Shown: positions 7,601-55,373, counted from the stretch's first letter. The stretch is DNA of 64,000 bases from Candidatus Omnitrophota bacterium (GCA_026387335.1 JAPLLX010000002.1:77326-141325), one strand, 5' to 3'. A program made the numbers and translations. The notes: generated by a model not told the origin, from the sequence alone.

Positions 7601-9561
7601 GAAAACAATTAGCAACTGAGTTAATTTTATGTTTCTCTAGCGCGCTCCTGCTTATCCTTTCCTTTTCTTCAAGTAAGTGGTGCTGGGTATTCGCCTGGGT
7701 GTCTTTTGTGCCGTTGTTTTTTGCTCTGGAGAACAAAGGGGCTAAGCGAGCGTTTGGCCTGGCTTACTTTACGGGAATATTATTCTGGTCAGGCACAATA
7801 TATTGGTTAGCTAACGTAACTATTTTCGGCCAGATCCTTTTAATCCTGTATCTTGCGCTTTATTTTGGCCTGTTTGGTTTATTAATGACCCGGCCATTTG
7901 CCAAATGCAGCCTGTTATTTATACCCGCATTATGGGTCTTCCTTGAATATGCGCGCAGCCATCTTCTAACGGGCTTTCCCTGGGCTTTGCTGGGTTACTC
8001 GCAGTACGCGAATCTGGCGATTATCCAGATTGCCGATATCGCCGGAGTCTGGCTCGTCTCTTTCCTGGTCATGTTTGTGAATGTCGCTATTAAGGAAGCA
8101 TGGTCCAGGAGGCAGCGCAGGTATCTATTTTTTGCCGGTATTTTTTTAGCCCTCAGTCTTGCTTATGGGTCTTTAAGGTTGCCTAAGATCGAGAGCCCGG
8201 AGACATTAAGAATATCTGTTGTGCAGGGGAATATCCCGCAGGAGTTAAAATGGGAAGAGAGGGCCAGAGAATTTGTAATCAACAGGTATTTTAAGTTAAC
8301 CGGTGAGGCCAAGAAAGACGCGCCGGATTTAATCATCTGGCCTGAAGCAGCCCTGCCGGTAGTCCTGGAAGAGCAACCTCTTTATTATGAAAGATTAAGC
8401 CGGTACACAAAAACAATCGGCCGGCCGTTAATTTTTGGCGCGGTCACCAGCCGTAACGACGCTTATTATAATAGCGCGCTGCTCTTATCTAAAGAAGGCA
8501 GATTATTAAGGAGTTACGATAAGTTCCACCTTGTTCCGTTCGGTGAGTTTATTCCTTTCCGAAAGGCTTTTCCGTTCCTAGAGACAATCGCTCCCATTGG
8601 CGATATTACCAGGGGCCGGGATTATACCCTGTTTAATATCCAGCATCAGGGTTTAAGGATAAGGCATCAATTCGGGGTATTGATCTGTTTTGAAGATGTT
8701 TTTCCGGAATTAGCCAGGGAATTTGTAAACAAGGGCGCGGATTTTCTGGTCAATATTACCAATGACGCCTGGTTTGGCAAGACTACCGAAGCCTACCAGC
8801 ATCTGGCCGCTTCGGTTTTTAGGGCGGTAGAGAACAGGGTTTGCCTGGTGCGCTCGGCCAATACCGGCATCTCCGGATTTATCGACCCGCAAGGAAGAGT
8901 TGTTCCTTTAGCTGACGCGCAAGGTAATTTAATTTTTACCCCGGGCTATAAAACAGAGAATATATTTTTGCCCGCGCATGCGTCATTTTACGGTTATTAC
9001 GGAGATTTTCTGATTCCTCTATGTTTATTGCTTCTTATATATATTATACTTTTTTCTTTATATAAAAAGGCGATGCGTAAGATCCTGCTGATTTCTCTGC
9101 TTATTTTGGCTATTTATTCAGCGATAAATTATTATTTCGCCGATAAATATTATTTTCTTTGCCCTATACGTTACGATACTAGTCTTATTGTCCGTAGCGA
9201 TTCCCGGGGGGATGGTTTTTTCGGCTCCAGCCGTAATGGCAATAGGATGCATCAGGGGATTGATTTGTTTGCCCAGGTCGGCACTCCGGTTTTGGCAGCT
9301 CGTTCGGGTATAGTTACGGCGGCCAAGAGCAACCGGGGTATGGGTAAGTATGTTATCATCCGCCATAGTTTTAATCTGGTCAGTATTTACGGACACCTCT
9401 CCCAGATTTTCGTTACTAAGAATCAAATCCTGCGCCAGGGACATATTATCGGCAGCGTTGGCAAGACCGGAAACGCCAGGCATCCCGGGATACAGCCGCA
9501 CTTGCATTTTGAGGTCAAGAAAAACGGCATTCCCCAGGATCCCTTGGAGTATTTAAAATAA
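7585..9561 (+). CDS. lnt: Apolipoprotein N-acyltransferase (Lnt) fused in frame to a C-terminal M23 (LytM-type) metallopeptidase domain
   Basis: Residues 1-~495 carry Lnt TM helices plus the CN-hydrolase domain (ISVVQGNIPQE..., IIWPEAALP, CFEDVFPE, NITNDAWFG). From the internal ATG at 9073 (MRKILLISLLILAIYSA...) there is an M23 domain (HQGIDLFAQVGTPV..., GHLSQIFV, HLHFEV). There is no stop between the two. Confidence 0.8.
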   Translation: MLRQIRKQLATELILCFSSALLLILSFSSSKWCWVFAWVSFVPLFFALENKGAKRAFGLAYFTGILFWSGTIYWLANVTIFGQILLILYLALYFGLFGLLMTRPFAKCSLLFIPALWVFLEYARSHLLTGFPWALLGYSQYANLAIIQIADIAGVWLVSFLVMFVNVAIKEAWSRRQRRYLFFAGIFLALSLAYGSLRLPKIESPETLRISVVQGNIPQELKWEERAREFVINRYFKLTGEAKKDAPDLIIWPEAALPVVLEEQPLYYERLSRYTKTIGRPLIFGAVTSRNDAYYNSALLLSKEGRLLRSYDKFHLVPFGEFIPFRKAFPFLETIAPIGDITRGRDYTLFNIQHQGLRIRHQFGVLICFEDVFPELAREFVNKGADFLVNITNDAWFGKTTEAYQHLAASVFRAVENRVCLVRSANTGISGFIDPQGRVVPLADAQGNLIFTPGYKTENIFLPAHASFYGYYGDFLIPLCLLLLIYIILFSLYKKAMRKILLISLLILAIYSAINYYFADKYYFLCPIRYDTSLIVRSDSRGDGFFGSSRNGNRMHQGIDLFAQVGTPVLAARSGIVTAAKSNRGMGKYVIIRHSFNLVSIYGHLSQIFVTKNQILRQGHIIGSVGKTGNARHPGIQPHLHFEVKKNGIPQDPLEYLK

Positions 9562-15823: not shown

Positions 15824-16564
15824 ATGGTCCTAGGCTGGATTCTCATAAGCACATTATTGGTCAGCGTTATTTCGCTTATCGGCATATTTACGCTGGCGAT
15901 AAAAGAGGAGAGGCTGCATAAGATTATTTTTAGCCTTATCGGATTCTCCGCCGGCGCGCTTATCGGCAGCGCCTTCCTGCATATTCTGCCGGAAGCTTTA
16001 GAAAAAACAAACAGTACAGTTGTTTTTTATTATCTTATTCTGGGGTTAACCCTGTTTTTTTTGCTGGAGAGATACCTCCACTGGCGGCATTGCCATGATA
16101 AAGACTGCGCTGTGCACGCCTTCACTTATTTAAATCTTTTCGGGGAAGCCTTCCATAATTTCATTGATGGCATTGCCATTGCCGCCAGCTTCATCATTTC
16201 ATTTAAATTGGGGCTGGCTACTACTTTAGCGATCATACTGCATGAGATCCCTAAGGAGCTGGGGAACTTCGGAGTGCTTATTTACGGCGGGTTTAGCCGC
16301 AATAAGGCCCTGCTTTATAATTTTATTTCGGCTTTAGCGGCGGTTATCGGGGCGCTTGTAGGATATTTTATCTCTGATTTCGCGCACGGTTTTTCCGATT
16401 TTATTATGCCTTTGACCGCGGGCGGATTTATTTATATCGCCACCTCTGACTTAATCCCCGAGATACATAAAGAAAAGGACCAAAGGCGCGCGACCCTGGC
16501 TTTTGTTTCTTTCTTATTCGGGATTCTATTTATGGCGCTAGCCAAAATATTACTGCCGGAGTAG
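15824..16564 (+). CDS. zupT: ZIP-family zinc transporter (ZupT-like)
   Basis: HNFIDGIAIAASF and HEIPKELGNFGVL signature helices. Confidence 0.8.
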   Translation: MVLGWILISTLLVSVISLIGIFTLAIKEERLHKIIFSLIGFSAGALIGSAFLHILPEALEKTNSTVVFYYLILGLTLFFLLERYLHWRHCHDKDCAVHAFTYLNLFGEAFHNFIDGIAIAASFIISFKLGLATTLAIILHEIPKELGNFGVLIYGGFSRNKALLYNFISALAAVIGALVGYFISDFAHGFSDFIMPLTAGGFIYIATSDLIPEIHKEKDQRRATLAFVSFLFGILFMALAKILLPE

Positions 16565-16606: not shown

Positions 16607-17614
16607 ATGAAAGCGATTGCTTTGATTTCAGGAGGTTTGGACAGCATTCTGGCGGCAAGGATAATTAAAGAGCAGGGTATTGGAGTCCTGCCTTTGAATT
16701 TCAAGATTCCTTTTTGCCAGCGTAAAAAACAAGCCTCCCAGGATAACGACATAAATTCATTAGTAAAGAGAAGTCTAGGCCAAGAGCTTAAGGTGGTTGA
16801 CATAAGCAGTGAATTTCTGGAACTGGTTTTAAAGCCAAGGCACGGATTCGGTTCAAATATGAATCCCTGCATAGATTGCAAGATTTTTATGTTAAAAAAG
16901 GCTAAAGAGTTGTTGCGTTTTTTTGACGCGCAATTTGTAGTTACCGGGGAGGTCTTGGGCCAGAGGCCGATGTCACAGCACAGAAGGGCGCTGGATACTA
17001 TTGAGAAAGAGAGTGGTTTAGACGGCCTCTTGCTTAGGCCATTGTGCGCTGGTGTCCTTGCGGAAACCCGGCCTGAGAAAGAGGGTTGGGTCAAGCGCGA
17101 TAGATTATTTAAATTTAGCGGCCGTTCCCGCAGGCCGCAGATGGATTTAGCCAGAGAATTTAGCATAGATAATTATCCTAACGCCTCCGGAGGTTGTCTG
17201 TTAACCGACCCGCGATTTTCTAATAAGCTCAGAGACCTTATTTCCCACCAAGCCCTAAACTTAGAAGATGTGGGGTTATTAAAGATAGGCAGGCATTTCA
17301 GGCTATCCGAGAAGGCCAAGTTAATTGTCGGCCGCAACGAAGAAGAGGACAGGGAACTGGAATTAAGCGCCCGCGGGAATGATTATATATTTATGCCAAA
17401 TCCGGAATTGGCTGGTCCGACTTGTTTGGGCAGAGGAGAGTTTGATAACGACTTAATCCAACTCTCTTTACAGATAACCTGTCATTATTGCGACTTAAAT
17501 ACAACTAAAAGCGCGAGGTTAATCTATTATCGGGCCGGGATTAGCCCACGGGAAGAATCTTCCTGGGAGGTTTCTCCTCTCCCGGAGGATAAACTTAAAT
17601 TATTCAGACTATGA
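16607..17614 (+). CDS. PP-loop ATPase, ThiI/MnmA-like tRNA-thiolation-type, lacking THUMP and rhodanese domains
   Basis: N-terminal PP-loop (SGGLDS), an NPCIDCK Cys motif (compare MnmA NPCVLCN), and TGEVLGQRPMSQ (compare ThiI TGEALGQVSSQT). The C-terminal ~130 aa is a Cys-containing extension of unknown fold. Confidence 0.45.
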   Translation: MKAIALISGGLDSILAARIIKEQGIGVLPLNFKIPFCQRKKQASQDNDINSLVKRSLGQELKVVDISSEFLELVLKPRHGFGSNMNPCIDCKIFMLKKAKELLRFFDAQFVVTGEVLGQRPMSQHRRALDTIEKESGLDGLLLRPLCAGVLAETRPEKEGWVKRDRLFKFSGRSRRPQMDLAREFSIDNYPNASGGCLLTDPRFSNKLRDLISHQALNLEDVGLLKIGRHFRLSEKAKLIVGRNEEEDRELELSARGNDYIFMPNPELAGPTCLGRGEFDNDLIQLSLQITCHYCDLNTTKSARLIYYRAGISPREESSWEVSPLPEDKLKLFRL

Positions 17615-18621
17615 AAGAAGCGTTACTTTATGAAAAATTGGATAAAAGTTTAGTACATTGTTATTTGTGCAGCCATCACTGTAAGATTGCCGACCAGGGA
17701 TTCGGTTTTTGCGGGGTTCGGCAGAATTTAGAAGGGACATTGTATACCCACGCTTATGGGAATGTAATTTCCGCGCAGGTTGACCCTATTGAAAAGAAAC
17801 CGCTCTATCATTTTTTACCGGGTTCAAGCAGTTTTTCAATAGCCACCCGGGGTTGTAATTTTCGTTGCGGGTTTTGTCAGAATTGGGAAATATCCCAGCA
17901 ATCTTTTAAGGATGGAAGCAGCAGCCTGGGGGAAGAAGAATTAAGCCCGTCCGATATAGTAGAAGAGGCTCTGAAAAACGACTGTAAAAGCATAGCTTAT
18001 ACTTATACCGAGCCGACCATATTTTTTGAATATGCCTATGAAACCGCCAGGCTGGCCAAAGAAAAAGGCCTACGTAATATTTTTGTTACCAACGGCTATA
18101 TGACTAAAGAGTGCTTGATTATGATTAAGCCGTATTTAGACGCCGCGAATGTGGACCTTAAGTTTTTCAACGATGCTTCCTATAAAAAGATTTGTTTAGG
18201 TAGTTTAAGTCCGGTATTGGATTCTATCAGGCTTATGAAGGAATTAGGGATATGGATAGAGATAACTACTTTGCTTATACCTGGAGAGAATGATTCTGAT
18301 GTAGAATTATCCGGGATAGCCCGTTTTATCTCCGGCGTTGATAAAGGCATCCCCTGGCATATTTCCCGCTTCCATCCTGATTATAAGTTCAGCGAATACC
18401 CGGTTACCCCGCAAGAGTCACTTAAAAAAGCGTATTCTATCGGCCGGGAAGCGGGTTTAGACTTTATTTATATAGGTAATGTTTCAGGTTGGGGGAGTGA
18501 TACGGCTTGTCCGGCTTGCAAAAAAAGATTAATTAGAAGAGATTATTTTAATATTTTAGAGTATAATATCAAAGAAAGCAGGTGTATTTATTGCCGGGAG
18601 CGCCTACCGGGAGAATTTTAA
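17611..18621 (+). CDS. Radical SAM enzyme of the AmmeMemoRadiSam-system / PFL-activase-like type
   Basis: Family-typical N-terminus (CYLCSHHCKIADQGFGFCGVRQN ... DPIEKKPLYHFLPGS ... GCNFRCGFCQNWEIS). ATGA overlap with the upstream gene. Confidence 0.75.
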   Translation: MKEALLYEKLDKSLVHCYLCSHHCKIADQGFGFCGVRQNLEGTLYTHAYGNVISAQVDPIEKKPLYHFLPGSSSFSIATRGCNFRCGFCQNWEISQQSFKDGSSSLGEEELSPSDIVEEALKNDCKSIAYTYTEPTIFFEYAYETARLAKEKGLRNIFVTNGYMTKECLIMIKPYLDAANVDLKFFNDASYKKICLGSLSPVLDSIRLMKELGIWIEITTLLIPGENDSDVELSGIARFISGVDKGIPWHISRFHPDYKFSEYPVTPQESLKKAYSIGREAGLDFIYIGNVSGWGSDTACPACKKRLIRRDYFNILEYNIKESRCIYCRERLPGEF

Positions 18622-18640
18622 GGCGGATTAAGGGCTGAAG

Positions 18641-19309
18641 ATGAAGATAATCAATCCGGAAAAATGTATTGTTTTTTTTGATTTTGATAATACCATCGCC
18701 ACCTGCGATGTATTTGATAATATGCTCCCGCGTTTCTCCCAGGATGACCTTTGGGTCAAACTGGAGAAGGATTGGCAAAAGGGGAGAATCGGCTCGCACG
18801 CCTGCCTTGCCGGACAGATTAACGGGATAAGTATTAGCAAACAGGCGTTGGATAAGTATTTGTCCGGGATAAAACTGGACCCCTATTTTAAGAAGATCGT
18901 AAAGTTGCTCGCGGTGCATAAGATAACCGTGGCGGTATTAAGCGATAACTTTGACTATATATTAAAACGCATACTAGGCTTTAACTCCATTAAGAACCTT
19001 AAGGTTTATTCCAATAAGCTAAAGTTCGTTAAAGATAAGCTTATCCCGTTTTTTCCGTTTAGGAGCAAAAAATGCCAGGTCTGCGCCCATTGTAAGACAA
19101 AAAACCTCTTGGCAAATGTTTCCCAGGATTCTATAATAATCTACGTAGGTGACGGCCGTTCCGACATCTGCCCGTCACAGTATGCGGACCTGGTCTTCGC
19201 TAAAGACGCGCTCTTAAAATATTTTCAGGATAAAAAACTTACCTGTTTTGCTTATAAGTCTTTAAAAGATGTGTATACTTATTTAAAAGGAGTTTTGTAT
19301 GAACAATAA
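18641..19309 (+). CDS. HAD-superfamily (subfamily IB-like) phosphatase with C-terminal CxxCxxC
   Basis: DxDxT motif (FFDFDNTIA); C-terminal GDGRSD; CQVCAHC. Confidence 0.55.
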   Translation: MKIINPEKCIVFFDFDNTIATCDVFDNMLPRFSQDDLWVKLEKDWQKGRIGSHACLAGQINGISISKQALDKYLSGIKLDPYFKKIVKLLAVHKITVAVLSDNFDYILKRILGFNSIKNLKVYSNKLKFVKDKLIPFFPFRSKKCQVCAHCKTKNLLANVSQDSIIIYVGDGRSDICPSQYADLVFAKDALLKYFQDKKLTCFAYKSLKDVYTYLKGVLYEQ

Positions 19310-20717
19310 ACTGGCCAACAAAAAAACCAAGATCAATAACAGTCCCGCTCTTTCAGATGACCTTTTAGCCCTGGAAGCGAAATATTGTTCCTGGGGCGAT
19401 ACAGTCCATTACGCGGATAAGCTAAATATATTCAAGTCCGCCGAAGGAAGTTTTTTGTATGATAACAACGGAGTCGAGTACCTGGATCTGCAGATGTGGT
19501 ATTCAGCGGTTAATTTTGGCTACAAGAATAAGCGCCTGAACGCGGTCTTAAAAAAACAGATTGATACCCTGCCTCAGCTGGCCTGCCAGTATTTACACGA
19601 AGAGAAGATACGGCTAGCCGCGAAAATCGCGCGGAAAAACGAAATGGCTTTTGAAGAAAAAGGCAGAGTCCATTTTAATGTCGGAGGCTCTTCCGCTCTG
19701 GAGGATGCGCTCAAGTTGATCCGGAATCATTCCGGCCGCAGCCTGGTTTTCGCTTTCATGGGCGGTTACCACGGCCGGACATTGGCTGCCTCGGCAGTTA
19801 CCTCAAGCTTTCGCTACAGGGAGCGCTTCGGACATTTTGGTGACCGGGCGCAGTTTATCCCGTTTCCTTACTGTTTTCGCTGCCCTTATGACAAAAAGAA
19901 GGATTTTTGCGACCTTTATTGCCTGAAACAATTTGAAAGACTCTTTGAAACAGAGTACCATTCCGTAGTCAATAAAAAAACGAATAAATGTGAATTCTCC
20001 GCTTTTATTGTGGAAGCAGTCCAGGGAACAGGCGGTTATGTCATTCCGCCTCAGGAGTATTTTTCAGGCTTAAAAGAGATCCTGGACAGATACGGTATAC
20101 TCTTTGTTGATGATGAAATACAGATGGGTTTCTTTAGGACCGGAAAACTCTGGGCCATAGAGCATTTTAACGTCACTCCGGATATAATTGTCTTTGGCAA
20201 GGCCTTGACTAACGGTTTAAACCCGATTTCGGGCGTCTGGGCGAAAGAAAAACTGATCTCTCCCGATGTTTTTCCTCCGGGATCCACCCATTCGACATTC
20301 TCCTCCAACCCCTTAGGCACCGCGGCAGGGTTAGAGGTAATGAAATTAATTGAAGAATCAAATTTTGCCGTGGATATCCCTAAGAAAGGGCAATATTTCA
20401 TCAATCATTTTAAGAAGCTGCAAAAGAAATACCCGCAGATAGGCGACGTAGATGGTTTAGGCCTGGCTATACGCGTGGAGATGTGTGAAAAAGACGGTTA
20501 TACGCCCAGCAAGGAATTAGCCGACAGAATAGTGAATTTAGGCTTAAGCGGAAACCTGGGAGCGGGTAGTAAAAAACGCGGGCTGATATTAGATATCGGA
20601 GGATATTACAAAAACGTCTTTACCATGGCGCCTTCTTTTTATATCACCGAAAAAGAGATAGACCTGGCAGTCGAGCTTTTTGAAGAAGCGCTCTCTAAGG
20701 CCCTCAAGAAAGCTTAA
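19299..20717 (+). CDS. Class-III PLP-dependent aminotransferase
   Basis: FIVEAVQGTGG, DDEIQMGFFRTG and FGKALTNG (PLP-lysine motif). Confidence 0.8.
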   Translation: MNNKLANKKTKINNSPALSDDLLALEAKYCSWGDTVHYADKLNIFKSAEGSFLYDNNGVEYLDLQMWYSAVNFGYKNKRLNAVLKKQIDTLPQLACQYLHEEKIRLAAKIARKNEMAFEEKGRVHFNVGGSSALEDALKLIRNHSGRSLVFAFMGGYHGRTLAASAVTSSFRYRERFGHFGDRAQFIPFPYCFRCPYDKKKDFCDLYCLKQFERLFETEYHSVVNKKTNKCEFSAFIVEAVQGTGGYVIPPQEYFSGLKEILDRYGILFVDDEIQMGFFRTGKLWAIEHFNVTPDIIVFGKALTNGLNPISGVWAKEKLISPDVFPPGSTHSTFSSNPLGTAAGLEVMKLIEESNFAVDIPKKGQYFINHFKKLQKKYPQIGDVDGLGLAIRVEMCEKDGYTPSKELADRIVNLGLSGNLGAGSKKRGLILDIGGYYKNVFTMAPSFYITEKEIDLAVELFEEALSKALKKA

Positions 20718-20740
20718 AGAAAATTCAATCCTCGCCTTGT

Positions 20741-21670
20741 ATGCTTAGTCAAGATATCCGCGTACTGGATTTTGATGGCAGCGTTAGAAAGCAGCAGGGC
20801 CTTCTGCATAAATATCCGCATCAAATTGTATCCCTGGGAGATTTAGCCCCGCGTTCCCGGCTTTGGATGGATAAGCGCGTAAGACTTGGTATTAGCGAAC
20901 GCCTGGATAAAACTAGACGTAATTGCGTTACTTTCCTGGGTTCGGGAGATTTTCATAACATTACACCGCTACTCCTGGAAAAATTTGAGGAACCGATTTC
21001 ACTTATTGTTTTTGATTTTCATCCTGACTGGGATACGCTCCCGCCGCGTTTTGGCTGTGGCTCCTGGGTAAGTGATGCTTTAAGAAGAAAGAATATTGTA
21101 AAATGCCTGCTTATCGGTATCGCCTCCGATGATATTTCTTTTCCCTGGATACAAAGCGGAAATTTAGGCAGCCTTAATAATGACCGGCTGGAAATCTATC
21201 CCTACGCGCATGAGCCCTCAACGGTATTTTTGCGAAAGGTTCCGGAGAATATTTCTTTAAGGAAAAAAGTTGGTTTCTTAAAAACCCGGCTCTACTGGGA
21301 GGAGCTAAGAAGTAAGAACTTAATGGATTTTTTTAGCCCGCTCTTTAGCCGCCTGCCGGTAAAAGATGTATATGTTTCCATAGATAAGGATTGCCTGGAG
21401 AGTAGAAGCGCTCTGACTAATTGGGAAGAAGGCAGGTTAACCCTAGCGCAGCTTCTTCTAATACTTGAACTAATAAAGAAAAACCTCAATATTGTGGGTG
21501 TGGATATTACGGGAGATTATTCCAGGATTTCTATTTCCGGAAGGCTAAAAAGCATCTTTTCTCGGTTAGACCATCCTAAGGCAGTCCAAGCGGATAAGTT
21601 ATCGGAAGAAGCAGTAACCCGCGTAAATGAAGAGACCAATCTCAAGATACTCAAAACCCTTATAGCGTAA
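20741..21670 (+). CDS. Divergent ureohydrolase (arginase/agmatinase-fold) family protein
   Basis: Three arginase-like metal motifs in order: GSGDFH, DFHPDWDT, SIDKDCL. Confidence 0.4.
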   Translation: MLSQDIRVLDFDGSVRKQQGLLHKYPHQIVSLGDLAPRSRLWMDKRVRLGISERLDKTRRNCVTFLGSGDFHNITPLLLEKFEEPISLIVFDFHPDWDTLPPRFGCGSWVSDALRRKNIVKCLLIGIASDDISFPWIQSGNLGSLNNDRLEIYPYAHEPSTVFLRKVPENISLRKKVGFLKTRLYWEELRSKNLMDFFSPLFSRLPVKDVYVSIDKDCLESRSALTNWEEGRLTLAQLLLILELIKKNLNIVGVDITGDYSRISISGRLKSIFSRLDHPKAVQADKLSEEAVTRVNEETNLKILKTLIA

Positions 21671-21673
21671 GTC

Positions 21674-22534
21674 TTATTTATACTTTGCAAAGAAAGATAT
21701 AGTCTGATCAGCGACTTTATCCCTCTCTTGGTCGGCGATAATAATATGGTAAGAATCCTCAAAGAGCACGACGTTTTTATCTTTAGCGGCAATATGATTA
21801 TATATATAGTAGGAATTCTTCGGGCTGGTTACGTCATCGTCCTTTGCTTGTAATAGCTGTATCGGGGTAGTTACTTTATCTAATAAGCGCATAACGTGTT
21901 TGGTTAACAGGGAGTTTTGCTCCATACTGGAGACAGGTATGACCGGATAACCATAGAGATGGACCTTGCTGTAATCAAATAAGTCCGATTCTTTGTAGAA
22001 ACTTTCGATCCTCGACCTTAACCTTTCGTTCTTCACTCCATAAGGATATCCCTCTTTAAGATAAAAATAGTATTTAAGAGGCGTCCTGTAAATAAGAGGC
22101 AGCAGGATCCTTAGCTTGGGCGTGGCCCAACCGTCAAAAAAGAGAGTAGGCGAAAAACAGTTAATCGCTTTTATTTTATTAGGGAATTCATAGGCCAGGA
22201 GTATCCCTAAAAGCGCCCCGAATGATAACCCGGCTACAAATATATTATCATAGGATGATTCATATTTCAGGAATTCCCGTTTTATCCCGCTGTATAACTC
22301 CTGCCAGGTTTTTCTTTTTAATACCGATATAGATTGGTTATGCCCGTCCAGCATGGGCGCTGCTACTGAAAACCCTTCTTTATTCAGGCGCGCTCCTATG
22401 GAGCTCATTTCTTTAGCGGTCCCAGTAAGCCCATGGATAAGAAAGCAAAGGTTTTTCCCTCCTTCTAAGAAAAAGCTTGAGTCCGGTATATCATTTATCT
22501 GGCGGCGGTCTTCGGCAAGAGAGAAGATGATCAT
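21674..22534 (-). CDS. Alpha/beta hydrolase (lysophospholipase/esterase-like)
   Basis: HGLTGT oxyanion region; GLSFGA nucleophile elbow. Confidence 0.7.
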   Translation of the reverse strand: MIIFSLAEDRRQINDIPDSSFFLEGGKNLCFLIHGLTGTAKEMSSIGARLNKEGFSVAAPMLDGHNQSISVLKRKTWQELYSGIKREFLKYESSYDNIFVAGLSFGALLGILLAYEFPNKIKAINCFSPTLFFDGWATPKLRILLPLIYRTPLKYYFYLKEGYPYGVKNERLRSRIESFYKESDLFDYSKVHLYGYPVIPVSSMEQNSLLTKHVMRLLDKVTTPIQLLQAKDDDVTSPKNSYYIYNHIAAKDKNVVLFEDSYHIIIADQERDKVADQTISFFAKYK

Positions 22535-23752
22535 TTATATTTTCTTTATCCTTTCAATCAGGGAGCAGATATCTTTTTGGGTTAAGAAACGGCTGGTAGT
22601 CAAGGTAATATGGTTTTTGGCGATTGCCCTGGCGTTGGGATAAACTGCGTCACCCACCATATCTTTTAGGTAAGCGTAATCGGTGATAGCCGCAAGGTAG
22701 ATTAACGCTACGCCTAATCCGGAGTTATGTAAAATATTGAATACCTTATCGCGTTGCGCTGTTTCGTCAAAGAGCAGGGTAAGGTAAGGGTAATTGGCAG
22801 TAGAGCCGTTAGGTTCGGTAATCAATTTTATCCCCTGGAGGCCTTTTAAGCCTTCTATATAATCTGCCGTGGTTTTTCTCTGGTTGGTTATTTCGTTTTC
22901 CAGGCGATCAAACATCGCGTGAGCCACCGATTTTCTCATCTTGGATACTTTATGGAGCGGGAAATCAACGCTAAAATATTCAATAAACGCCTTTTCCATC
23001 TTGCCCTGCAGCTGCCAGAAAAGCTGCGGAAGCCTGAAGACGAACCAGAAGAGGAAGGGCCTGTAAAAAATCCAATAGCCGAATAATTCCAGGACTTTTA
23101 AGCATTCAGAGAAGAGGTCGGTTTTAGCTAGACGATTCAATTCGCTGTCAATGAGCGCGGCGAATTTAAGGCTGCTTACAATTACTCCTCCTTCGTAGGT
23201 AGTCAGGCCTTTACCCCGGCAGAGGCTAAAGAAGGCGAAATCTCCCAGTGTCCCGGTTTTTTTATTTTGATATACCGCGCCTAAGCTTTGCGCGCAATCT
23301 TCAACGATAAATATTTTATTTTCTTTTACTATATCTTGTATTACTTGAAAATCCGCCGCTATGCCGGCTAAATGCACGGCTACAATTGCCAGTATGTCGT
23401 TATTATTTGCGCATAATTTTTTTAACTGGTTGACTTCAAAATTGAAGTCAACTTTATTAATGTCGCAGACCGCCACCTTTAATCCCGCCCTCTTGATGGC
23501 TAATGGAATAAGTGGGCAGATAAAAGCAGGGATAATAACGGTTTTTCTTGGGGAGAGCTTTTTTAACGCTTCTAGTATGATATAAAAAGCAGCTGTCCCC
23601 GAATAAGTTATAGCCGCGTAAGAGGCGCCCAGATACTTTTTAAAATCTTCTTCTAAAGAAGCGGATGGGTTTCTTTTAGAGAAGGCGCAAAAGATATCCC
23701 TGGCGTAAAGAGGCAGGCCGGCTGTGGGTGGTATTTCTCGGAATAAGCTCAT
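22535..23752 (-). CDS. DegT/DnrJ/EryC1/StrS-family sugar aminotransferase (ArnB-like)
   Basis: Family motifs (DCAQSLGAVYQNKKTGTLGDFAFFSL ... GKGLTTYEGG). It abuts the downstream hydrolase gene. Confidence 0.75.
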   Translation of the reverse strand: MSLFREIPPTAGLPLYARDIFCAFSKRNPSASLEEDFKKYLGASYAAITYSGTAAFYIILEALKKLSPRKTVIIPAFICPLIPLAIKRAGLKVAVCDINKVDFNFEVNQLKKLCANNNDILAIVAVHLAGIAADFQVIQDIVKENKIFIVEDCAQSLGAVYQNKKTGTLGDFAFFSLCRGKGLTTYEGGVIVSSLKFAALIDSELNRLAKTDLFSECLKVLELFGYWIFYRPFLFWFVFRLPQLFWQLQGKMEKAFIEYFSVDFPLHKVSKMRKSVAHAMFDRLENEITNQRKTTADYIEGLKGLQGIKLITEPNGSTANYPYLTLLFDETAQRDKVFNILHNSGLGVALIYLAAITDYAYLKDMVGDAVYPNARAIAKNHITLTTSRFLTQKDICSLIERIKKI

Positions 23753-23778
23753 TTTAGCATTAGTATTTCACCTATTCT

Positions 23779-24945
23779 ATGCTAAAATACTTCATAATTC
23801 AAGCTACTTATTGTAAGCCGCTTATGGAAAACCTAACTTGCCAAATTCTGGATTCAGTCGCCAAAATCCGCAAAAATGACTGGGATAGGGTTTTTGGAGA
23901 TATCCCCGAGGGGTATGAATTTTATAGGACGATTGAGGAGTCCGGGCTCAAAGAATTTACCTTCTTTTATCTTATTCTCTATAATAACCAGTGCTTAGTT
24001 TTAATTGCCCCCATTTTTATCGCGGATTTTAACCTGGATATTGCTGTTGAGGGATGGCTCAAAAATGTTATTGCGTCTGTGCGTAAGATTATCCCCCGTT
24101 TTTTAATGATGCGGACCATCTTTTGCGGTTCGGTGTTCGGAGAGCATGGCGTTATCGGTATAGATAAAGGCGCGCAGGAAAATCCGGCTATCCCGCGAGA
24201 ATTGTTAAAAGGCCTGGAAGACTTCCGTAAACAAAAAAAAGCCAGCCTGGTGATGTTTAAAGACTTTCTTAAAAACTCGCCGGGGTTTTTAGATTCATTT
24301 AAGCAAAAAGGCTTCTTTCGGGTCAATAGTTTCCCTTGCGCAGCCAGTGAAGTTAATTTCCCTGATTTCCAGGGGTATTTACAGAGCTTGGGGCATTCTA
24401 CCCGAAAGAACCTGCGCCGTAAGCTCAAAGAAGCCTATAAAGAGTCCAAGATAAGCGTAGAAGTAGCGGATAATGTTGCTAATATCATAGACGAGATTTA
24501 CGGGCTTTACCTGCAGGCGCATCGCGACGGCGCGACAAAATTCGAGAAACTTACCAAAGTGTTCTTTTTAAAGGTATCCGAACACATGGCTCCTTATGTA
24601 AAATACTTCTTATATTATGTTAACGGCAAGTTAGGCGCGTTTAATCTCTGTTTTGTGCAAAAAAATTTATTCATTGATAAATTCATTGGTTTCGATTATG
24701 ATATATCTAGAAGGCACCATTTATATTTTGTCAGCTGGTGTTATAATGTGGAATGGTGCATTAAGCATTCCATACCTTTTTATCATACCGGCCAGACGGA
24801 TTACGAAGCTAAGGTAAGGTTGGGATCAAAACTTATACCGCTTTATGCTTACCTGAGGCATAAAAACAAAGCCGCAAATTTATTTTTTAAAGCCTTAAGC
24901 TTAGTTTTAAAGCCCGATAATTTTGATAGAGAGATCAAAACATGA
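23779..24945 (+). CDS. FemAB / Acetyltransf_6 (GNAT-fold)-like protein
   Basis: Size and secondary-structure pattern fit FemAB/BioF2-like acyltransferases; the call is weak. Confidence 0.35.
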   Translation: MLKYFIIQATYCKPLMENLTCQILDSVAKIRKNDWDRVFGDIPEGYEFYRTIEESGLKEFTFFYLILYNNQCLVLIAPIFIADFNLDIAVEGWLKNVIASVRKIIPRFLMMRTIFCGSVFGEHGVIGIDKGAQENPAIPRELLKGLEDFRKQKKASLVMFKDFLKNSPGFLDSFKQKGFFRVNSFPCAASEVNFPDFQGYLQSLGHSTRKNLRRKLKEAYKESKISVEVADNVANIIDEIYGLYLQAHRDGATKFEKLTKVFFLKVSEHMAPYVKYFLYYVNGKLGAFNLCFVQKNLFIDKFIGFDYDISRRHHLYFVSWCYNVEWCIKHSIPFYHTGQTDYEAKVRLGSKLIPLYAYLRHKNKAANLFFKALSLVLKPDNFDREIKT

Positions 24946-25367
24946 TAAAAGTATTTAAAAAAAAACTTACCCTTAAAATATTAGTTTTTCTTATTCTGAC
25001 CGACTTTTTGGAGACGTTCACCCACCTTTGCTTTAAGAAGAGCGCCCTTACCGAGAGCGATTTTGTTATAAATAAATTACCGGATGCGCTGATTTTCTTA
25101 CAGAGTGTTTTTTCATCCGGATTTTTATGGCTGGGCCTTTTTTCTGTAGTAGTAACATTTATTATCTGGTCAAGCCTGCTTTCTAAGATTGATTTAAGCG
25201 TTGCCGTACCGGTATGCAGTTTTAGCTATATCCTTATCCCGATAGCTTCTATTATCTTCCTGCAGGAAAAGGTAAGCCTTTTCAGGTGGTCAGGGGTATT
25301 ATTCATATTATTGGGGGTGGTTTTTGTTTCCCTGAGCGCCTCAGAGAAGGAGCATATCCTAGAATGA
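24942..25367 (+). CDS. Small EamA/SMR-like 4-TM protein (ArnE-like flippase subunit candidate)
   Basis: 141 aa, four TM helices; ATGA-coupled to the next gene. Confidence 0.5.
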   Translation: MIKVFKKKLTLKILVFLILTDFLETFTHLCFKKSALTESDFVINKLPDALIFLQSVFSSGFLWLGLFSVVVTFIIWSSLLSKIDLSVAVPVCSFSYILIPIASIIFLQEKVSLFRWSGVLFILLGVVFVSLSASEKEHILE

Positions 25368-25750
25368 GAGAAGGACTAGGATTCATCTTATTTCTTATAG
25401 CCCTCACCAGCATCTGCGATACTATAAATCAACTTTTCTTAAAATCCGCGATTAACTCCCTTTTTTCGCCTTCAGGAAATATCCGGGAAATATTAAGGTT
25501 CATTTTCAAGCTGCTTCTGGTGCCCAGGGTCTGGGTCAGCTTCTTATTCAGTTTAATTTCGTTATGTATATGGCTATTTGTATTGAGCCAAGTGGATTTA
25601 AGTTTTGCCTTTTCCGCGGATAGTATGCATTATATTTTTATTGCTCTTGCCTCAAGGTTTATATTGAAGGAGAAGGTTTGTTTTAAGCGCTGGGTAGGAA
25701 TAATACTTATCGTGGTAGGTATTATGATGGTGAGCGTAAGCGTAAGCTAG
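25364..25750 (+). CDS. Small EamA/SMR-like 4-TM protein (ArnF-like partner)
   Basis: Starts at the internal ATG 25364 (MREGLGFILF...), overlapping the upstream stop as ATGA, with RBS AGAAGGA. Confidence 0.5.
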   Translation: MREGLGFILFLIALTSICDTINQLFLKSAINSLFSPSGNIREILRFIFKLLLVPRVWVSFLFSLISLCIWLFVLSQVDLSFAFSADSMHYIFIALASRFILKEKVCFKRWVGIILIVVGIMMVSVSVS

Positions 25751-26698: not shown

Positions 26699-27094
26699 AT
26701 GGCGGATTTAAAAGATTTATTGCAAAACGCAGATTGGAAAACCGAAAAACATGTTCCGGTTATTGAAGCCCCGGATAAGATCAACAAGGGCGAACCAGTA
26801 AAGGTTACTGTCAGTGTTGGCAAGCAGGTAGCCCATCCTAATACCACTGAACACCATATTAGATGGATCGAGGTCTATTTTCTGGGCCAGGGAGAAAAAT
26901 TTCCTTATCAGCTAGGCAGGTTTGAGTTCTCCAGCCACGGCGAATCAGCCCAGGGGCCCAACACCAGCACTATTTTTACTCAGCCGGAGGTTCTGCTTAC
27001 TTTTAAAACTGAGAAAAGCGGGACGATCCTGGCCGTTGCTTATTGTAATATCCATGGTTTGTGGAAAAACGCAAAAGAAATCCAGGTTGAATAA
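26699..27094 (+). CDS. Superoxide reductase (1Fe-SOR / neelaredoxin-type)
   Basis: EKHVPVI, HPNTTEHHIRWIE and CNIHGLW iron ligands. Confidence 0.85.
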   Translation: MADLKDLLQNADWKTEKHVPVIEAPDKINKGEPVKVTVSVGKQVAHPNTTEHHIRWIEVYFLGQGEKFPYQLGRFEFSSHGESAQGPNTSTIFTQPEVLLTFKTEKSGTILAVAYCNIHGLWKNAKEIQVE

Positions 27095-27148
27095 TTTTAG
27101 CGGGATGAAACTTAAAAGCCTGTTCCTTAGGCAGGCAGGGAGGTAAGT

Positions 27149-27442
27149 ATGTGTATGCTGGGTAAAATGGCCGGATATTTTGCTTTAGTACCTGCGACGA
27201 TGTTATTGGTAGTAAGCTTCTTTGTTTTGTTTACGCTCGGAAAGGTTGTTTCCCGTAATCTAAAGTTATTCGGAGCGGTGATTGTGGCCCTACTTTGGCT
27301 AAGCGCGCTGCTGATTTTTTCTACCGGAGCCTATACTACTGTTAAGGGTAGGCCGCCTTTTAAGTGCCCGATGATGGAGATGATGAAAGGTAAACAGGAT
27401 ATGATGCCTGGTGGTATGATGCAAGCCCCGCAACCCAAGTAA
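27149..27442 (+). CDS. Membrane protein with Met-rich C-terminal tail (hypothetical)
   Basis: Two TM helices, then [25 protein letters not shown]. Confidence 0.4.
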
Positions 27443-27455
27443 GGAGATATTCAAT

Positions 27456-27614
27456 ATGGATAAATACAAGTGCACTGTCTGCGGTTATATTTATGATCCT
27501 AGCCAAGGCGATTCTGTCGGGGGAATCCCCGCTGGTACGCCTTTTGATAAACTGCCCGCGGATTGGGTCTGTCCTGAGTGCGGAGTAGGCAAGGACATGT
27601 TTGAGAAGATTTAA
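27456..27614 (+). CDS. rub: Rubredoxin (52 aa)
   Basis: Not in the ORF track (under 60 aa). [15 protein letters not shown] ... [16 protein letters not shown] with two CxxCG knuckles; RBS AAGGAG. Confidence 0.9.
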
Positions 27615-27642
27615 CCGGGCAAGCTTAGTTTTAGGTACTTAA

Positions 27643-28347
27643 ATGGCTCAGGAATTATCCGTAAGAGTTAAAGAAATAATTCCCAGGACCTATAATGTCA
27701 AAAGCGTTCGGCTGGATATAGGTCAGGAAGCAGAATTTAAGGCCGGGCAGTTTCTTGCGGTCACACTGCAGGATAATCCGGGCCTAAAAAGATACCTTTC
27801 CATATCCAGCTCGCCCACTGAAAAATCTTACCTGGAATTTACCAAGAAGCTTACGGAAAGCGCTTTTTCAAAAGTCCTCCTGAAACTTAAGCCCCAAGAT
27901 CCCGTTAAGATCCAATACCCTATGGGTAAATTTACTCTGGATGACGCCTATACAAATATCGCGTTTTTATCCGGGGGGATCGGCATTACCCCTATAAGGA
28001 GCATAGTTAAATATGTTGTGGACAAAAATTTGGGGACGGATATGGTTTTAATCTATGCCAACCGGTCAGTAAAAGATATCGTCTTTAAAGAAGATTTTGA
28101 CGCGCTGCAGAAAGTTTATCCAAAGCTAAAAGTCGTCCATGTGCTTGGCGAACCTGCCCCGGATTTTAAGTGTATTCCCGGATTAATCAACGTCCAGGTG
28201 ATTAAAAACGAGGTGAGCGATTATCTAAATAGAAGATTTTATCTGTGCGGCCCGCCCCAGATGGTGGAAGTCATGGGAAAAATACTGACTGACGGATTGA
28301 AATTAGCTAAAGAAAATATAATTACGGAAAATTTTCAGGGGTACTAG
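27643..28347 (+). CDS. FNR-type FAD/NAD(P)-binding oxidoreductase (candidate NAD(P)H:rubredoxin reductase)
   Basis: RYLSISS (RxYS FAD motif), GGIGITP and a C-terminal YLCGPPQM. Confidence 0.65.
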   Translation: MAQELSVRVKEIIPRTYNVKSVRLDIGQEAEFKAGQFLAVTLQDNPGLKRYLSISSSPTEKSYLEFTKKLTESAFSKVLLKLKPQDPVKIQYPMGKFTLDDAYTNIAFLSGGIGITPIRSIVKYVVDKNLGTDMVLIYANRSVKDIVFKEDFDALQKVYPKLKVVHVLGEPAPDFKCIPGLINVQVIKNEVSDYLNRRFYLCGPPQMVEVMGKILTDGLKLAKENIITENFQGY

Positions 28348-28377
28348 AAAAATAACAGGCAGGGAAGGAGAAACGAT

Positions 28378-29571
28378 ATGGCAGTTTTAGAAATATTACC
28401 GGGCATCTATTCTGTAGGAGTTGTGGACTGGAACGTACGTAATTTTCACGGGCATACCTATACTACAAAGAGGGGCACTACCTATAATGCCTATCTTATT
28501 ATTGATGAAAAAGTCACCCTTATCGATACGGTTTACGGGCCTTTTGCCGCGGAGTTGATGGAAAATATCCGGCAGGTTATACCCGTGGAGAAAGTAGATT
28601 ATATTATCGCTAACCACGTGGAGACAGACCATAGCGGCGCGCTCCCTGAAATTATGAAACTCGTTCCGAAAGCTAAAATATTCGGGACAAAAAATTGCCA
28701 GGAAGGCCTCTACCGTTATTATTACGGCGACTGGGATTTTGGAATAGTTAAAACCGGAGATAAATTAAAATTAGGCAAAAGGAGTTTAACGTTTATTGAG
28801 GCTCCTATGGTCCATTGGCCGGATAGCATGTTTACCTATTGTCCCGAAGAAGAATTACTTATGCCCAACGACGCCTTTGGCCAGCATCTGGCGACTAATG
28901 AACGTTTCGCCGACCAGGTTGATCCGTGCGCGTTGTGGGATGAAGCGGCGAAATATTACAGCAATATACTCTGGCCGCTGGGGGCAGTCATCTTAAAGAA
29001 AATAGAAGAAGTCCTGAAATTAAACATTCCCATAAAGATTATCGCTCCCAGCCACGGCGTTATCTGGCGTAAGGATCCTATACAGATAATCAATAAGTAT
29101 GTCAGTTGGGCCAAGAATGAAACTTTGGCCAAGGTAGTCCTGGTCTATGAATCTATGTGGGGAGCGACTGAAAAGATGGCCCGTAAAATTATTGAGGGAG
29201 TCCAAAAAGAAGGGTTAAGCGTAAAGTTGTTTGATATAACCGGCTCTGACCGCACGGAAGTTGTTAAAGAGATGCTGGAGGCAAAAGGTTTTATTTTCGG
29301 TTCGTCAACCCACGATAATGGGATACTTACTACGCTGGCCGGCTTTCTGGAATTTATAAAGGGATTTAAACCGAAGAACAGGCTGGCCGCCAGTTTCGGC
29401 TCTTATGGTTGGGCCGGCGGGGCGGTTAAGCAGATAGAGGATATAGCAAAAGAAGCCGGCCTGGAGTTGGCAGCAACCGGATTGCAGGTAAAATATATGC
29501 CGGATAAGGATGACTTAGAAAAGTGTTTTGAATTCGGCAGGAATTTCGCTCTAAAGATAAAAGGGAAGTAA
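28378..29571 (+). CDS. fprA: Flavodiiron protein FprA (rubredoxin:oxygen/NO oxidoreductase)
   Basis: Metallo-beta-lactamase-like diiron site (ANHVETDHSGA) plus a flavodoxin domain (GSSTHDNG). Confidence 0.85.
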   Translation: MAVLEILPGIYSVGVVDWNVRNFHGHTYTTKRGTTYNAYLIIDEKVTLIDTVYGPFAAELMENIRQVIPVEKVDYIIANHVETDHSGALPEIMKLVPKAKIFGTKNCQEGLYRYYYGDWDFGIVKTGDKLKLGKRSLTFIEAPMVHWPDSMFTYCPEEELLMPNDAFGQHLATNERFADQVDPCALWDEAAKYYSNILWPLGAVILKKIEEVLKLNIPIKIIAPSHGVIWRKDPIQIINKYVSWAKNETLAKVVLVYESMWGATEKMARKIIEGVQKEGLSVKLFDITGSDRTEVVKEMLEAKGFIFGSSTHDNGILTTLAGFLEFIKGFKPKNRLAASFGSYGWAGGAVKQIEDIAKEAGLELAATGLQVKYMPDKDDLEKCFEFGRNFALKIKGK

Positions 29572-29574
29572 GCA

Positions 29575-30039
29575 ATGAGTCAGCTTAGTGAAACGGTTAT
29601 TCATTTTCTTCAAAGACAGGGGTGCGTTGTTGTCTCTAGCATTGATAGCCGGGGTTTTCCTCACTCTGCGTGCAAGGCGATAGTCAAAATTGAGAATAAT
29701 GGGACTGTTTATTTGTTGGACGCTTACCAAGGAAAAACTTTTCATAACCTGAAAAATAATCCTTTAGCCAGCGTGACTTCTTTTGACGAAGATAAATTCG
29801 CCGGTTATTGCCTTAAGGGCCGGGCGAGGATCTTATCCAAAGAAGAGCTGGATGCCGAAATAATCAAAGCTTGGGAGGAGAGGATCGTCAGCAGGTTAAC
29901 CCAGAGATTGCTTAAGAATATTCAGGGCGGGGCGAAAGGCCATCCAGGCCATCCGGAAGCTTTACTCCCTAAGCCCGAGCATATGATTGTTATTGATGTG
30001 GAAGAAGTTGTTGATCTTACGCCGCAGCATTTAAAGTAA
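29575..30039 (+). CDS. Pyridoxamine 5'-phosphate oxidase-like FMN-binding split-barrel protein
   Basis: Size and pattern of the PNPOx-like family; low specificity. Confidence 0.45.
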   Translation: MSQLSETVIHFLQRQGCVVVSSIDSRGFPHSACKAIVKIENNGTVYLLDAYQGKTFHNLKNNPLASVTSFDEDKFAGYCLKGRARILSKEELDAEIIKAWEERIVSRLTQRLLKNIQGGAKGHPGHPEALLPKPEHMIVIDVEEVVDLTPQHLK

Positions 30040-30075
30040 TCTGTTCTTTAGGCAGACAGGAGGTAAAAGGAAAAT

Positions 30076-30312
30076 ATGGCTAAGAAGGTTAAGATTTATA
30101 GCACTCCTACTTGTCCGTGGTGTATCCGGGTCAAGCAGTTTTTAAAAGAAAATAATATAGTTTTTGAAGATTATGATGTTTCTTCCGACCCGGCAAAGGC
30201 TGAGGAGATGGTTAAAAAAACCGGGCAAATGGGTGTGCCGGTATTGGATATTGAAGGCGAAATCATCGTCGGGTTTGATAAAGAGAAAATAAAAGCGTCT
30301 TTAGGGTTCTAA
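30076..30312 (+). CDS. Glutaredoxin-like protein (YruB-type, CPWC active site)
   Basis: KIYSTPTCPWC ... GVPVL. Confidence 0.8.
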   Translation: MAKKVKIYSTPTCPWCIRVKQFLKENNIVFEDYDVSSDPAKAEEMVKKTGQMGVPVLDIEGEIIVGFDKEKIKASLGF

Positions 30313-30322
30313 GTTTTAAGCT

Positions 30323-31312: not shown

Positions 31313-31753
31313 ATGAAAATCACCTATAAGGGCGATTACGCCTTAAAGACAATTTTGGATTTAGCCGCTCATTTCGGGAACGGACCGGTGGTCATCAACG
31401 ATTTATCCCGGCGCCTGGATATCCCCACAAAGTTCCTAGAGCAGATACTTTTGGATTTAAAGCGGGCGCACTTTGTGGAGAGTAAGCGCGGTAAGATCGG
31501 AGGCTATTCTTTGGCCAGGCATCCAGGGCAAATTACCCTGGGAGAGGTGACCCGTTTTATTGACGGCCCGATTGAGCCGATTGCCTGCGTAGATAAAAGA
31601 TATTCCGGCTGTCATGACGCGGGAGCCTGTGTTTTTAGAAGCATTTGGGGCCAGGTAAGCAGCTCAACCGCCAAGATCATAGATAATATAACCTTTGAAG
31701 ACCTTTTGAAAAGGTCAAAGAGGACAAATAAGTCTTTCAATTACCAAATTTAA
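31313..31753 (+). CDS. Rrf2-family regulator (CymR/IscR-like)
   Basis: Rrf2 N-terminal wHTH; it precedes cysK, as cymR does. Confidence 0.8.
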   Translation: MKITYKGDYALKTILDLAAHFGNGPVVINDLSRRLDIPTKFLEQILLDLKRAHFVESKRGKIGGYSLARHPGQITLGEVTRFIDGPIEPIACVDKRYSGCHDAGACVFRSIWGQVSSSTAKIIDNITFEDLLKRSKRTNKSFNYQI

Positions 31754-32671: not shown

Positions 32672-32682
32672 GGGGGATAAAA

Positions 32683-32904: not shown

Positions 32905-32925
32905 ATATTATTTTAGAGGTAATCA

Positions 32926-34140: not shown

Positions 34141-34143
34141 AAA

Positions 34144-34551: not shown

Positions 34552-34558
34552 GTTTACA

Positions 34559-53535: not shown

Positions 53536-53539
53536 TGCG

Positions 53540-54942: not shown

Positions 54943-54943
54943 T

Positions 54944-55369: not shown

Positions 55370-55373
55370 GCTT

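Follow-up and report, generated by a model that had tools for sequence, protein, structure and literature searches.

Gene organization of the locus

The window analyzed here, a 64-kb stretch of DNA, derives from a metagenome-assembled genome (MAG) of Omnitrophota; near-identical proteins and contigs bear that name. Five genes lie on its plus strand between positions 16607 and 21670, and the first two, thiI(NFACT-R) and amrS, are the main subject of this study. ThiI(NFACT-R) (open reading frame (ORF) 1, 16607-17614, 335 aa) is a ThiI-like PP-loop protein with a C-terminal NFACT-R_2 domain, and AmrS (ORF 2, 17611-18621, 336 aa) is a radical S-adenosylmethionine (SAM) enzyme whose usual family partners are AMMECR1 (AmrA) and Memo (AmrB). 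An ATGA start/stop overlap of the two genes is read in the plus-strand sequence at 17611-17614. The string continues with a HAD-IB phosphatase of the MtnX/PHOSPHO type (ORF 3, 18641-19309, 222 aa), a class-III (omega-) aminotransferase (ORF 4, 19299-20717, 472 aa) and a divergent ureohydrolase with the arginase fold (ORF 5, 20741-21670, 309 aa). These five ORFs and the ATGA coupling of the PP-loop gene to the radical SAM gene had been described in an earlier reading of the same DNA (the original prediction), and all are present with these boundaries. Each gene has hundreds to thousands of homologues in other MAGs, at 50-100% identity, and by that abundance the five ORFs are genuine genes. All five proteins belong to known families, and the domain architecture of ThiI(NFACT-R) is already on record. 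The new element appears to be the fixed partnership of ThiI(NFACT-R) and AmrS without AMMECR1 and Memo.

The tight, co-directional arrangement emphasized in the original prediction is real in both spacing and direction, but it belongs to a window-wide background. Between 548 and 21670, 19 plus-strand genes follow one another without interruption, separated by a median of 22 bp, and the plus strand holds 56 of the 58 large ORFs of the window. A promoter and terminator scan of the 14.4-22 kb region gave counts no better than those of shuffled sequences and defined no useful operon boundaries.

Domain architecture of ThiI(NFACT-R)

Two domains fill all 335 residues of ThiI(NFACT-R). The N-terminal PP-loop (adenine-nucleotide alpha-hydrolase) catalytic domain (residues ~1-225; 16607-17281, plus strand) matches PF02568 ThiI over residues 2-147 (40.4 bits against a cut-off of 20.5) and PF03054 (28 bits). 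The C-terminal domain, which is predicted to bind RNA (residues 228-333; 17288-17605, plus strand), matches PF18297 NFACT-R_2 over profile positions 1-103 of 104 (59.8 bits against 26.9, E = 3.2e-16). No THUMP or rhodanese domain was matched in the protein by Pfam or NCBIfam models. The proposed identity of a THUMP-less ThiI/MnmA-like PP-loop ATPase is thereby borne out. The "Cys-rich C-terminal extension" proposed along with it is in fact the full-length NFACT-R_2 domain, which contains three cysteines, of which C295 alone is near-invariant.

The catalytic domain retains its diagnostic motifs. SGGLDS (residues 8-13, compared over 17 homologues), CxxC (C88 and C91), GGC (C197), GRxRxxQ (residues 172-178) and the TxxE pair T154/E157 are invariant. 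A comparison of the predicted structure of the C-terminal part had also been suggested, and the AlphaFold (AF2) model of the protein, with a predicted local distance difference test (pLDDT) score of 88.6, matches the C-terminal domains of RqcH/FBPS in Foldseek, in addition to ThiI, MnmA, QueC and LarE; the fold matches of the NFACT-R_2 domain are 5h3w, 8s1u_H and 7aqc_R. A profile search against the Protein Data Bank (PDB) aligned the PP-loop domain with B. anthracis ThiI and with the NPCxxC and GxC motifs of MnmA, in both cases marginally (28 bits to solved ThiI structures), and a single-sequence search against the PDB returned no match. The protein also falls short of the canonical equivalogs (TIGR00342 ThiI, 41.4 vs 264.5 bits; PRK00143 MnmA, 30.8 vs 284 bits), and a genuine MnmA is encoded elsewhere in the window (46839-47951, 438 bits).

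Because its C-terminus is a full-length NFACT-R_2 domain, the PP-loop protein is, by domain content, placed in the ThiI+DUF814 (ThiI-NFACT-R) family, which comprises ~900 clusters at 50% identity. This family has been predicted to provide an alternative tRNA 4-thiouridine (s4U) synthase (Burroughs & Aravind 2014, PMC4075521). The published proteins share with ours the PP-loop and C-terminal NFACT-R domains, the lack of THUMP and rhodanese domains, and the SGGxDS, CxxC plus internal Cys, GRxRxxQ and TxxE motifs, and the protein thus does not constitute a new architecture. However, the sole conserved neighbor reported there is TusA (with or without IscS and IscU), whereas here it is AmrS, which that paper does not mention. 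A TusA-like gene was not detected in the window, and among the related loci weak matches occur in L028 and L033 only. We regard ThiI(NFACT-R) as a predicted rhodanese-less and THUMP-less tRNA uridine sulfurtransferase.

AmrS without local AMMECR1 and Memo genes

AmrS is a full-length, high-scoring member of the AmmeMemoRadiSam system (TIGR04335-04337), as had been proposed. It matches TIGR04337 with 340.6 bits against a cut-off of 220 (residues 7-336, model positions 4-333 of 349) and carries the radical SAM motif CxxxCxxC at C82/C86/C89 (CNFRCGFC; PF04055, 91.8 bits). Additional Cys motifs are located in its N-terminal (17/20/24/34) and C-terminal (300/303/325/328) regions. The only solved relatives of AmrS are pyruvate formate-lyase (PFL) activases, found with marginal scores, and the PFL activating enzyme and other glycyl-radical activases are likewise its closest characterized relatives by sequence. 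However, AmrS scores only 53-56 bits against their cut-offs of 230-250 and differs from them by the additional Cys motifs near both of its termini. Among the window ORFs scanned, none was recognized as a glycyl-radical enzyme.

In contrast to the described AmmeMemoRadiSam system, AmrS has no local AmrA or AmrB here, and its fixed partner is a PP-loop thiolase-like gene. AmrA and AmrB were sought by phmmer in six-frame ORFs, with two Memo+AMMECR1 fusion proteins that adjoin plasmid amrS genes (Ideonella and Segatella) as seeds; AmrS of the window is 38-42% identical to the products of those amrS genes. The seeds were sensitive enough to recover the AmrB of anammox loci with E-values of 1e-18 to 1e-30. 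Neither protein was found at E < 0.5 in the 64-kb window or in loci L001-L086, the AMMECR1 and Memo Pfam families are missing from the called genes of L173-L177, and Pfam scans of most window ORFs returned neither PF01871 nor PF01875. Thus, the absence of a nearby AMMECR1 or Memo gene, claimed originally for this locus, holds for its relatives too: the AmrA/AmrB-free span is 64 kb here and 7-10 kb around AmrS in 19 relatives. Locally orphan amrS genes are also found on Trichlorobacter, Sinorhizobium and Methylocystis plasmids, and an AmrB-AmrA fusion adjoins AmrS in two of five plasmid amrS cases.

Conservation of the thiI(NFACT-R)-amrS pair

A ThiI-NFACT-R alignment, scanned over one genome per Genome Taxonomy Database (GTDB) species, yielded 80 loci that span Omnitrophota, Planctomycetota, Thermodesulfobacteriota, Atribacterota, Nitrospirota, Chloroflexota, several archaeal phyla and others. 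With metagenome contigs included, 19 related Omnitrophota loci are paired (window/L001, L002, L004, L007-L013, L018, L021, L026, L027 and L173-L177), and in every one of them AmrS is the next gene 3' of ThiI(NFACT-R) on the same strand. The original prediction had recommended a survey of neighborhood conservation and had counted an adjacency that relatives do not share as a ground against it; the adjacency is kept in all 19. The 4-bp overlap is retained in 13 of these loci, with a gap of <=90 bp in the remaining six, and the pairing persists even where identity has fallen to 49% for ThiI and 56% for AmrS. Lasting overlaps like this one typify partners whose stoichiometry has to be fixed.

The ThiI(NFACT-R)/AmrS junction is the only one that is never broken in the 19 loci, and both flanks are rearranged. 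In the window, a ZIP-family metal transporter (15824-16564, plus strand; PF02535, 155 bits) lies directly upstream of ThiI(NFACT-R). In relatives, the upstream position is occupied by a ZIP, FeoAB or CsgG-like gene, and the pair is followed by HAD-IB, ThiM-ThiE, PncA-Thi4, a second ZIP or opposite-strand pilin-like genes. Viewed from the AmrS side, the gene upstream is ThiI(NFACT-R), overlapping by 4 bp, for both AmrS homologues checked (2/2). For 28 listed ThiI homologues, the longest contig is equal in size to that of a listed AmrS homologue, and many of these contigs are 2-5 kb long. In one locus (L008, 9017-9933), the AmrS gene is broken into two ORFs (232 aa and 74 aa), which reflects either a frameshift or pseudogene or else an assembly error. 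In a rough neighbor-joining tree, the paired loci form one main Omnitrophota clade, together with L012 and L013 on a neighboring branch. A general ThiI-NFACT-R/AmrS link across phyla is ruled out, as only one Omnitrophota group among the 80 genome loci shows it.

Genomic context of ThiI-NFACT-R in other lineages

In other phyla, ThiI-NFACT-R neighbors genes of sulfur trafficking, namely CysK, LarE, MnmA, IscU, Rrf2, MoeB/ThiF-rhodanese and HcyBio-like genes. A comparable set is located in the window 14-19 kb downstream of the pair (31313-36525) and encodes Rrf2, CysK (484 bits), an HcyBio homocysteine sulfur-incorporation enzyme, a NIL-ferredoxin, LarE (318 bits) and NifS (570 bits). This sulfur cluster and MnmA could supply sulfur to ThiI(NFACT-R).

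A second Amr component is found near ThiI-NFACT-R in anammox-type Planctomycetota. AmrB (TIGR04336, 306 bits) is encoded divergently upstream of ThiI-NFACT-R in seven Brocadiia-type genome loci (L031, L042, L044, L045, L048, L059 and L066; ~6750-7900, minus strand) and in the metagenome locus L093, and neither AmrS nor AmrA lies within 8 kb of these genes. In archaea, AMMECR1 shares an operon with NFACT (PMC4075521). Each Amr component thus adjoins an NFACT-R protein somewhere: AmrS with ThiI-NFACT-R in Omnitrophota, AmrB with ThiI-NFACT-R in anammox Planctomycetota and AMMECR1 with NFACT in archaea. Among 80 AmrB-like metagenome loci, 76 are solo (with neither AmrS nor AmrA in the available flank), three are canonical and one is of the anammox lineage. 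Given this preponderance of solo loci, the AmrB link, which only one lineage shows, could be due to chance, and we down-weight it as independent support.

A BioB-like radical SAM gene lies directly 3' of ThiI-NFACT-R in two Thermodesulfobacteriota/Syntrophus loci (L025 and L073), where this other sulfur-inserting radical SAM family occupies the position that AmrS has in Omnitrophota. With two loci only, radical SAM families other than AmrS form no general pattern beside ThiI-NFACT-R.

Three enzymes downstream of the pair

The HAD protein is of the HAD-IB class according to TIGR01489 (MtnX-like HAD-IB, 100.8 bits against 81.55) and also matches PF06888 (50 bits); its nucleophile motif, tested as DxDxT, reads FFDFDNT (residues 12-18). 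It scores below the MtnX equivalog cut-offs (TIGR03333, 56.6 vs 303.2; PRK09552, 63.5 vs 292). The class assigned in the original prediction is therefore correct, but the CxxCxxC motif, described there as C-terminal, is located mid-protein at residues 145-151 of 222. The class-III aminotransferase was also named correctly (PF00202, 276 bits). All 69 of its NCBIfam matches fall below the cut-off, the best being PRK05769 (297 vs 552); in the PDB, amino-acid racemases and GABA aminotransferases come closest to it, and it is 82-90% identical where it is kept in related loci.

For the ureohydrolase, profile, ligand and fold evidence agree with the divergent arginase-fold protein that had been proposed. 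PF00491 is matched at 27.9 bits against 22, and the binuclear-metal ligands D70/H72, D92/H94/D96 and D215/D217 are invariant and lie in motifs that align with DAHPD and SIDVD of arginase. The AlphaFold model (predicted template modeling (pTM) score of 0.86) matches agmatinase, proclavaminate amidinohydrolase (PAH) and guanidino-acid hydrolases in Foldseek with a probability of 1.00 and template modeling (TM) scores of 0.50-0.58. The protein thus has the fold and all of the binuclear-metal ligand motifs in common with these enzymes; however, its identity to them is 10-16%, it scores 24 bits against 302 for PRK02190, and its family is apparently restricted to Omnitrophota, with ~1,000 homologues, of which every named one is from this phylum.

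The three genes are kept much less faithfully than the pair. HAD-IB occurs in 12 of the 19 paired loci (in L010 as an 80-aa fragment only), the aminotransferase in eight and the ureohydrolase in seven. The aminotransferase is absent in L173 and the ureohydrolase in L007 and L018; HAD alone of the three is kept in L021 and L026, and the HAD fragment alone in L010; and none of the three is found in L004, L009, L011, L012, L013, L176 and L177. Across the loci, AmrS is separated from the next gene by anything from 1 to 232 bp, and PncA, Thi4, a GNAT or a second ZIP is inserted between AmrS and HAD in relatives. The order of all five genes is the same in L002/L003, L027, L174 and L175; L008 has it too, but with an insertion. 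Rather than obligatory components of the unit, the three downstream enzymes are its syntenic neighbors within a compact chromosomal block with a metal and sulfur theme. It is a reasonable guess that the ureohydrolase frees an amine that the omega-aminotransferase consumes, and the independent losses argue against a strict coupling of these two enzymes.

An envelope-modification-like cluster follows the string (21674-25750). Minus-strand genes for an alpha/beta hydrolase and a DegT-type aminotransferase come first in it, followed by a FemAB-like/GNAT gene and two small EamA genes, and in relatives a PagL lipid A deacylase gene comes next. Several loci retain this cluster along with the genes for HAD, the aminotransferase and the ureohydrolase.

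Other features of the window

Three further regions of the window were recorded. An oxygen-detoxification set (26699-31231) comprises desulfoferrodoxin, a flavodiiron protein, a PNPOx-like protein and a thioredoxin-reductase-like flavoprotein, joined in relatives by a rubredoxin-type gene, and is consistent with an anaerobe. A giant ORF of 2163 aa (39866-46357) has Metalloenzyme (PF01676) and iPGM_N matches in its middle part only, and most of the protein is without annotation. A membrane-bound [NiFe]-hydrogenase/complex-I-like module (51648-59934) encodes ferredoxin-type, NuoH-, NuoB-, NuoC-, NuoD-like and antiporter-like subunits and includes, unexpectedly, a PhoU-domain protein.

Discussion

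What is the biological function of the thiI(NFACT-R)-amrS pair? We propose, with somewhat more confidence than doubt, that it is a lineage-specific, translationally coupled two-gene unit, which probably carries out Fe-S-dependent RNA thiolation and radical chemistry. By analogy with ThiI/TtuI, the NFACT-R_2 domain would bind RNA (tRNA) for ThiI(NFACT-R), which would adenylate the uridine carbonyl with ATP and then swap it for sulfur. TtuI of Methanococcus and Pyrococcus is a rhodanese-less PP-loop enzyme whose CxxC + C triad binds a [4Fe-4S] cluster that U8 sulfuration requires (PMC9825150). Since C88, C91 and C197 of ThiI(NFACT-R) match this conserved triad, the sulfur probably arrives as sulfide bound to a [4Fe-4S] cluster on these residues. 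However, TtuI has an N-terminal THUMP domain for tRNA binding, whereas ThiI(NFACT-R) has a C-terminal NFACT-R_2 domain and a cluster site that is putative, being recognized from its sequence. A tRNA substrate and a dependence on Fe-S are therefore what the resemblance to characterized enzymes would suggest.

AmrS, produced from the overlapping ATGA start, would act in the same process, for example by subjecting that RNA, or the thiolated product, to a radical step, and would apparently work without the AMMECR1 and Memo partners usual in its family. We infer a functional or physical coupling of ThiI(NFACT-R) and AmrS as a nearly even proposition, with the balance tipped slightly to the negative side. 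In a stronger form of the proposal, AmrS is uncoupled from AMMECR1/Memo and has become the obligate partner of an NFACT-R tRNA thiolase, and either the two generate a thiolated, radical-SAM-elaborated nucleoside or AmrS acts on the thiolase itself. We advance this form only tentatively, as the less probable one. An earlier study predicted that AMMECR1, the radical SAM enzyme and a Memo-like dioxygenase perform RNA base modification (PMC2034487).

Several points weigh against the proposed two-gene unit. The window is nearly all co-directional and tightly packed and synteny in the clade is fairly high, so that adjacency by itself is weak evidence. AmrS does not follow ThiI-NFACT-R in the Omnitrophota loci L014, L015, L017, L019, L020, L022, L037, L038, L046 and L072, nor in any other phylum sampled among the ~20 phylum-level groups with ThiI-NFACT-R; limited to one lineage, the pairing counts as roughly one evolutionary event. 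No ThiI-NFACT-R/AmrS fusion exists among the best 150 family representatives, and AmrA and AmrB may be encoded elsewhere in the genome. Furthermore, the PP-loop domain bears MnmA-like as well as ThiI-like motifs, and this mixture leaves the target nucleotide undefined. No experiments on the ThiI-NFACT-R or AmrS family were found in the searchable literature.

The strongest alternative is one of co-expression only, in which two unrelated Fe-S housekeeping enzymes reside in a metal-transport and Fe-S block and are adjacent through inherited synteny and compact operon packing. The restriction of the pairing to a single lineage and the 22-bp median gap of an almost entirely co-directional window are what this explanation predicts. 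It also accommodates the CsgG-like and ZIP genes upstream, which are likewise kept in 8-10 loci, the recurrence of metal transporters and Rrf2 (ZIP/FeoAB upstream; ZIP, a permease, a P-type ATPase and Rrf2 downstream), and the locally orphan AmrS of the Trichlorobacter, Sinorhizobium and Methylocystis plasmids. However, it does not readily account for a junction that alone stays unbroken in 19 loci while its flanks are rearranged, or for a 4-bp overlap that is kept in 13 of them over ~50% protein divergence. We consider co-expression only a possible explanation, clearly less probable than the two-gene unit.

A dispersed version of the canonical AmmeMemoRadiSam system is rather unlikely. AmrA and AmrB would then be encoded elsewhere in the genome, and the adjacency to ThiI(NFACT-R) would be uninformative about the substrate. 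Dispersal is common in the family, given the 76 of 80 AmrB-like metagenome loci that lack AmrS and AmrA in the available flank and the presence of an adjacent AmrB-AmrA fusion in just two of five plasmid AmrS genes. In addition, the Omnitrophota AmrS scores well over the family cut-off along its full length and hence is not an obviously diverged paralogue. On the other hand, neither AmrA nor AmrB was found in the 64 kb here or in the 7-10 kb surveyed in each of the 19 relatives, and dispersal leaves the conserved translational coupling unexplained.

A role in thiamine metabolism is less probable still. In this case, ThiI(NFACT-R), perhaps together with AmrS and HAD-IB, would serve thiazole or thiamine synthesis instead of or besides tRNA thiolation, for example by passing sulfur to a sulfide-dependent Thi4 thiazole synthase, with HAD as a thiamine-monophosphate (ThMP) phosphatase. 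Thiamine genes follow AmrS in six of the 19 paired loci: ThiM-ThiE in L004/L005 (11789-12805), L011 (10025-11448) and L013 (10306-11708), and a PncA-like isochorismatase with Thi4 in L174 (5840-7203), L175 (6438-7812) and L176 (8914-10280). Thi4 also lies directly upstream of solo ThiI-NFACT-R genes in two Omnitrophota loci (L038, 366-1121; L046, 2051-2809) and in one of Planctomycetia (L067, 3998-4723). However, the remaining paired loci have no such genes after AmrS, the window itself has none, and no TPP riboswitch or other RNA element was matched by Rfam in the window or in five related loci. The domain content points the same way, in that the protein has an RNA-binding-type NFACT-R domain and lacks rhodanese, which is the part of E. 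coli ThiI required for thiazole synthesis.

The HAD evidence cuts both ways. A plant PF06888 homologue was first reported as a ThMP phosphatase but prefers phosphoethanolamine in planta (PMC9911876, citing Hasnain 2016). HAD_2 (HAD-IA) domains are fused to the N-terminus of ThiI-NFACT-R in P0402 (539 aa) and P0472 (519 aa), and in several of the paired Omnitrophota loci a separate HAD_2 gene is found upstream of ThiI, two to three genes away. Such fusions might reflect a thiamine link, but they are equally explicable if the fused HAD removes pyrophosphate for the PP-loop reaction. Finally, a single modification or biosynthetic pathway of all five genes, as envisaged in the original prediction, which would combine thiolation, radical chemistry, dephosphorylation, transamination and guanidino/amide hydrolysis, is very improbable, because the three downstream genes, for all their close co-directional spacing and the loci in which the complete order recurs, are lost independently or replaced while the pair stays.

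Implications for the AmmeMemoRadiSam family

AMMECR1 is a human disease gene. To our knowledge, nearly two decades have passed without a biochemical function being established for AMMECR1, MEMO1 or the radical SAM enzyme that partners them in prokaryotes, and RNA base modification is the only proposal. A 2019 study by Burroughs et al. in J Biol Chem reportedly extended the contexts of Memo to "nucleotide base modification", and an earlier description of the pairing is possible. If the adjacency of thiI(NFACT-R) and amrS is only inherited synteny, the finding amounts to routine annotation of an Omnitrophota MAG. The pairing rests on a single lineage of uncultivated bacteria, but it makes the function of AmrS and of AMMECR1/Memo accessible to testing: the pair is a simple two-protein system to express, with a concrete candidate class of substrate, tRNA or thiolated uridine. 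If the proposed two-gene unit is real, AmrS can work without AMMECR1 and Memo. If, furthermore, AmrS is the obligate partner of the thiolase, the pair would give, for the first time, a lead at the level of the substrate (tRNA or RNA) for the AmmeMemoRadiSam family.

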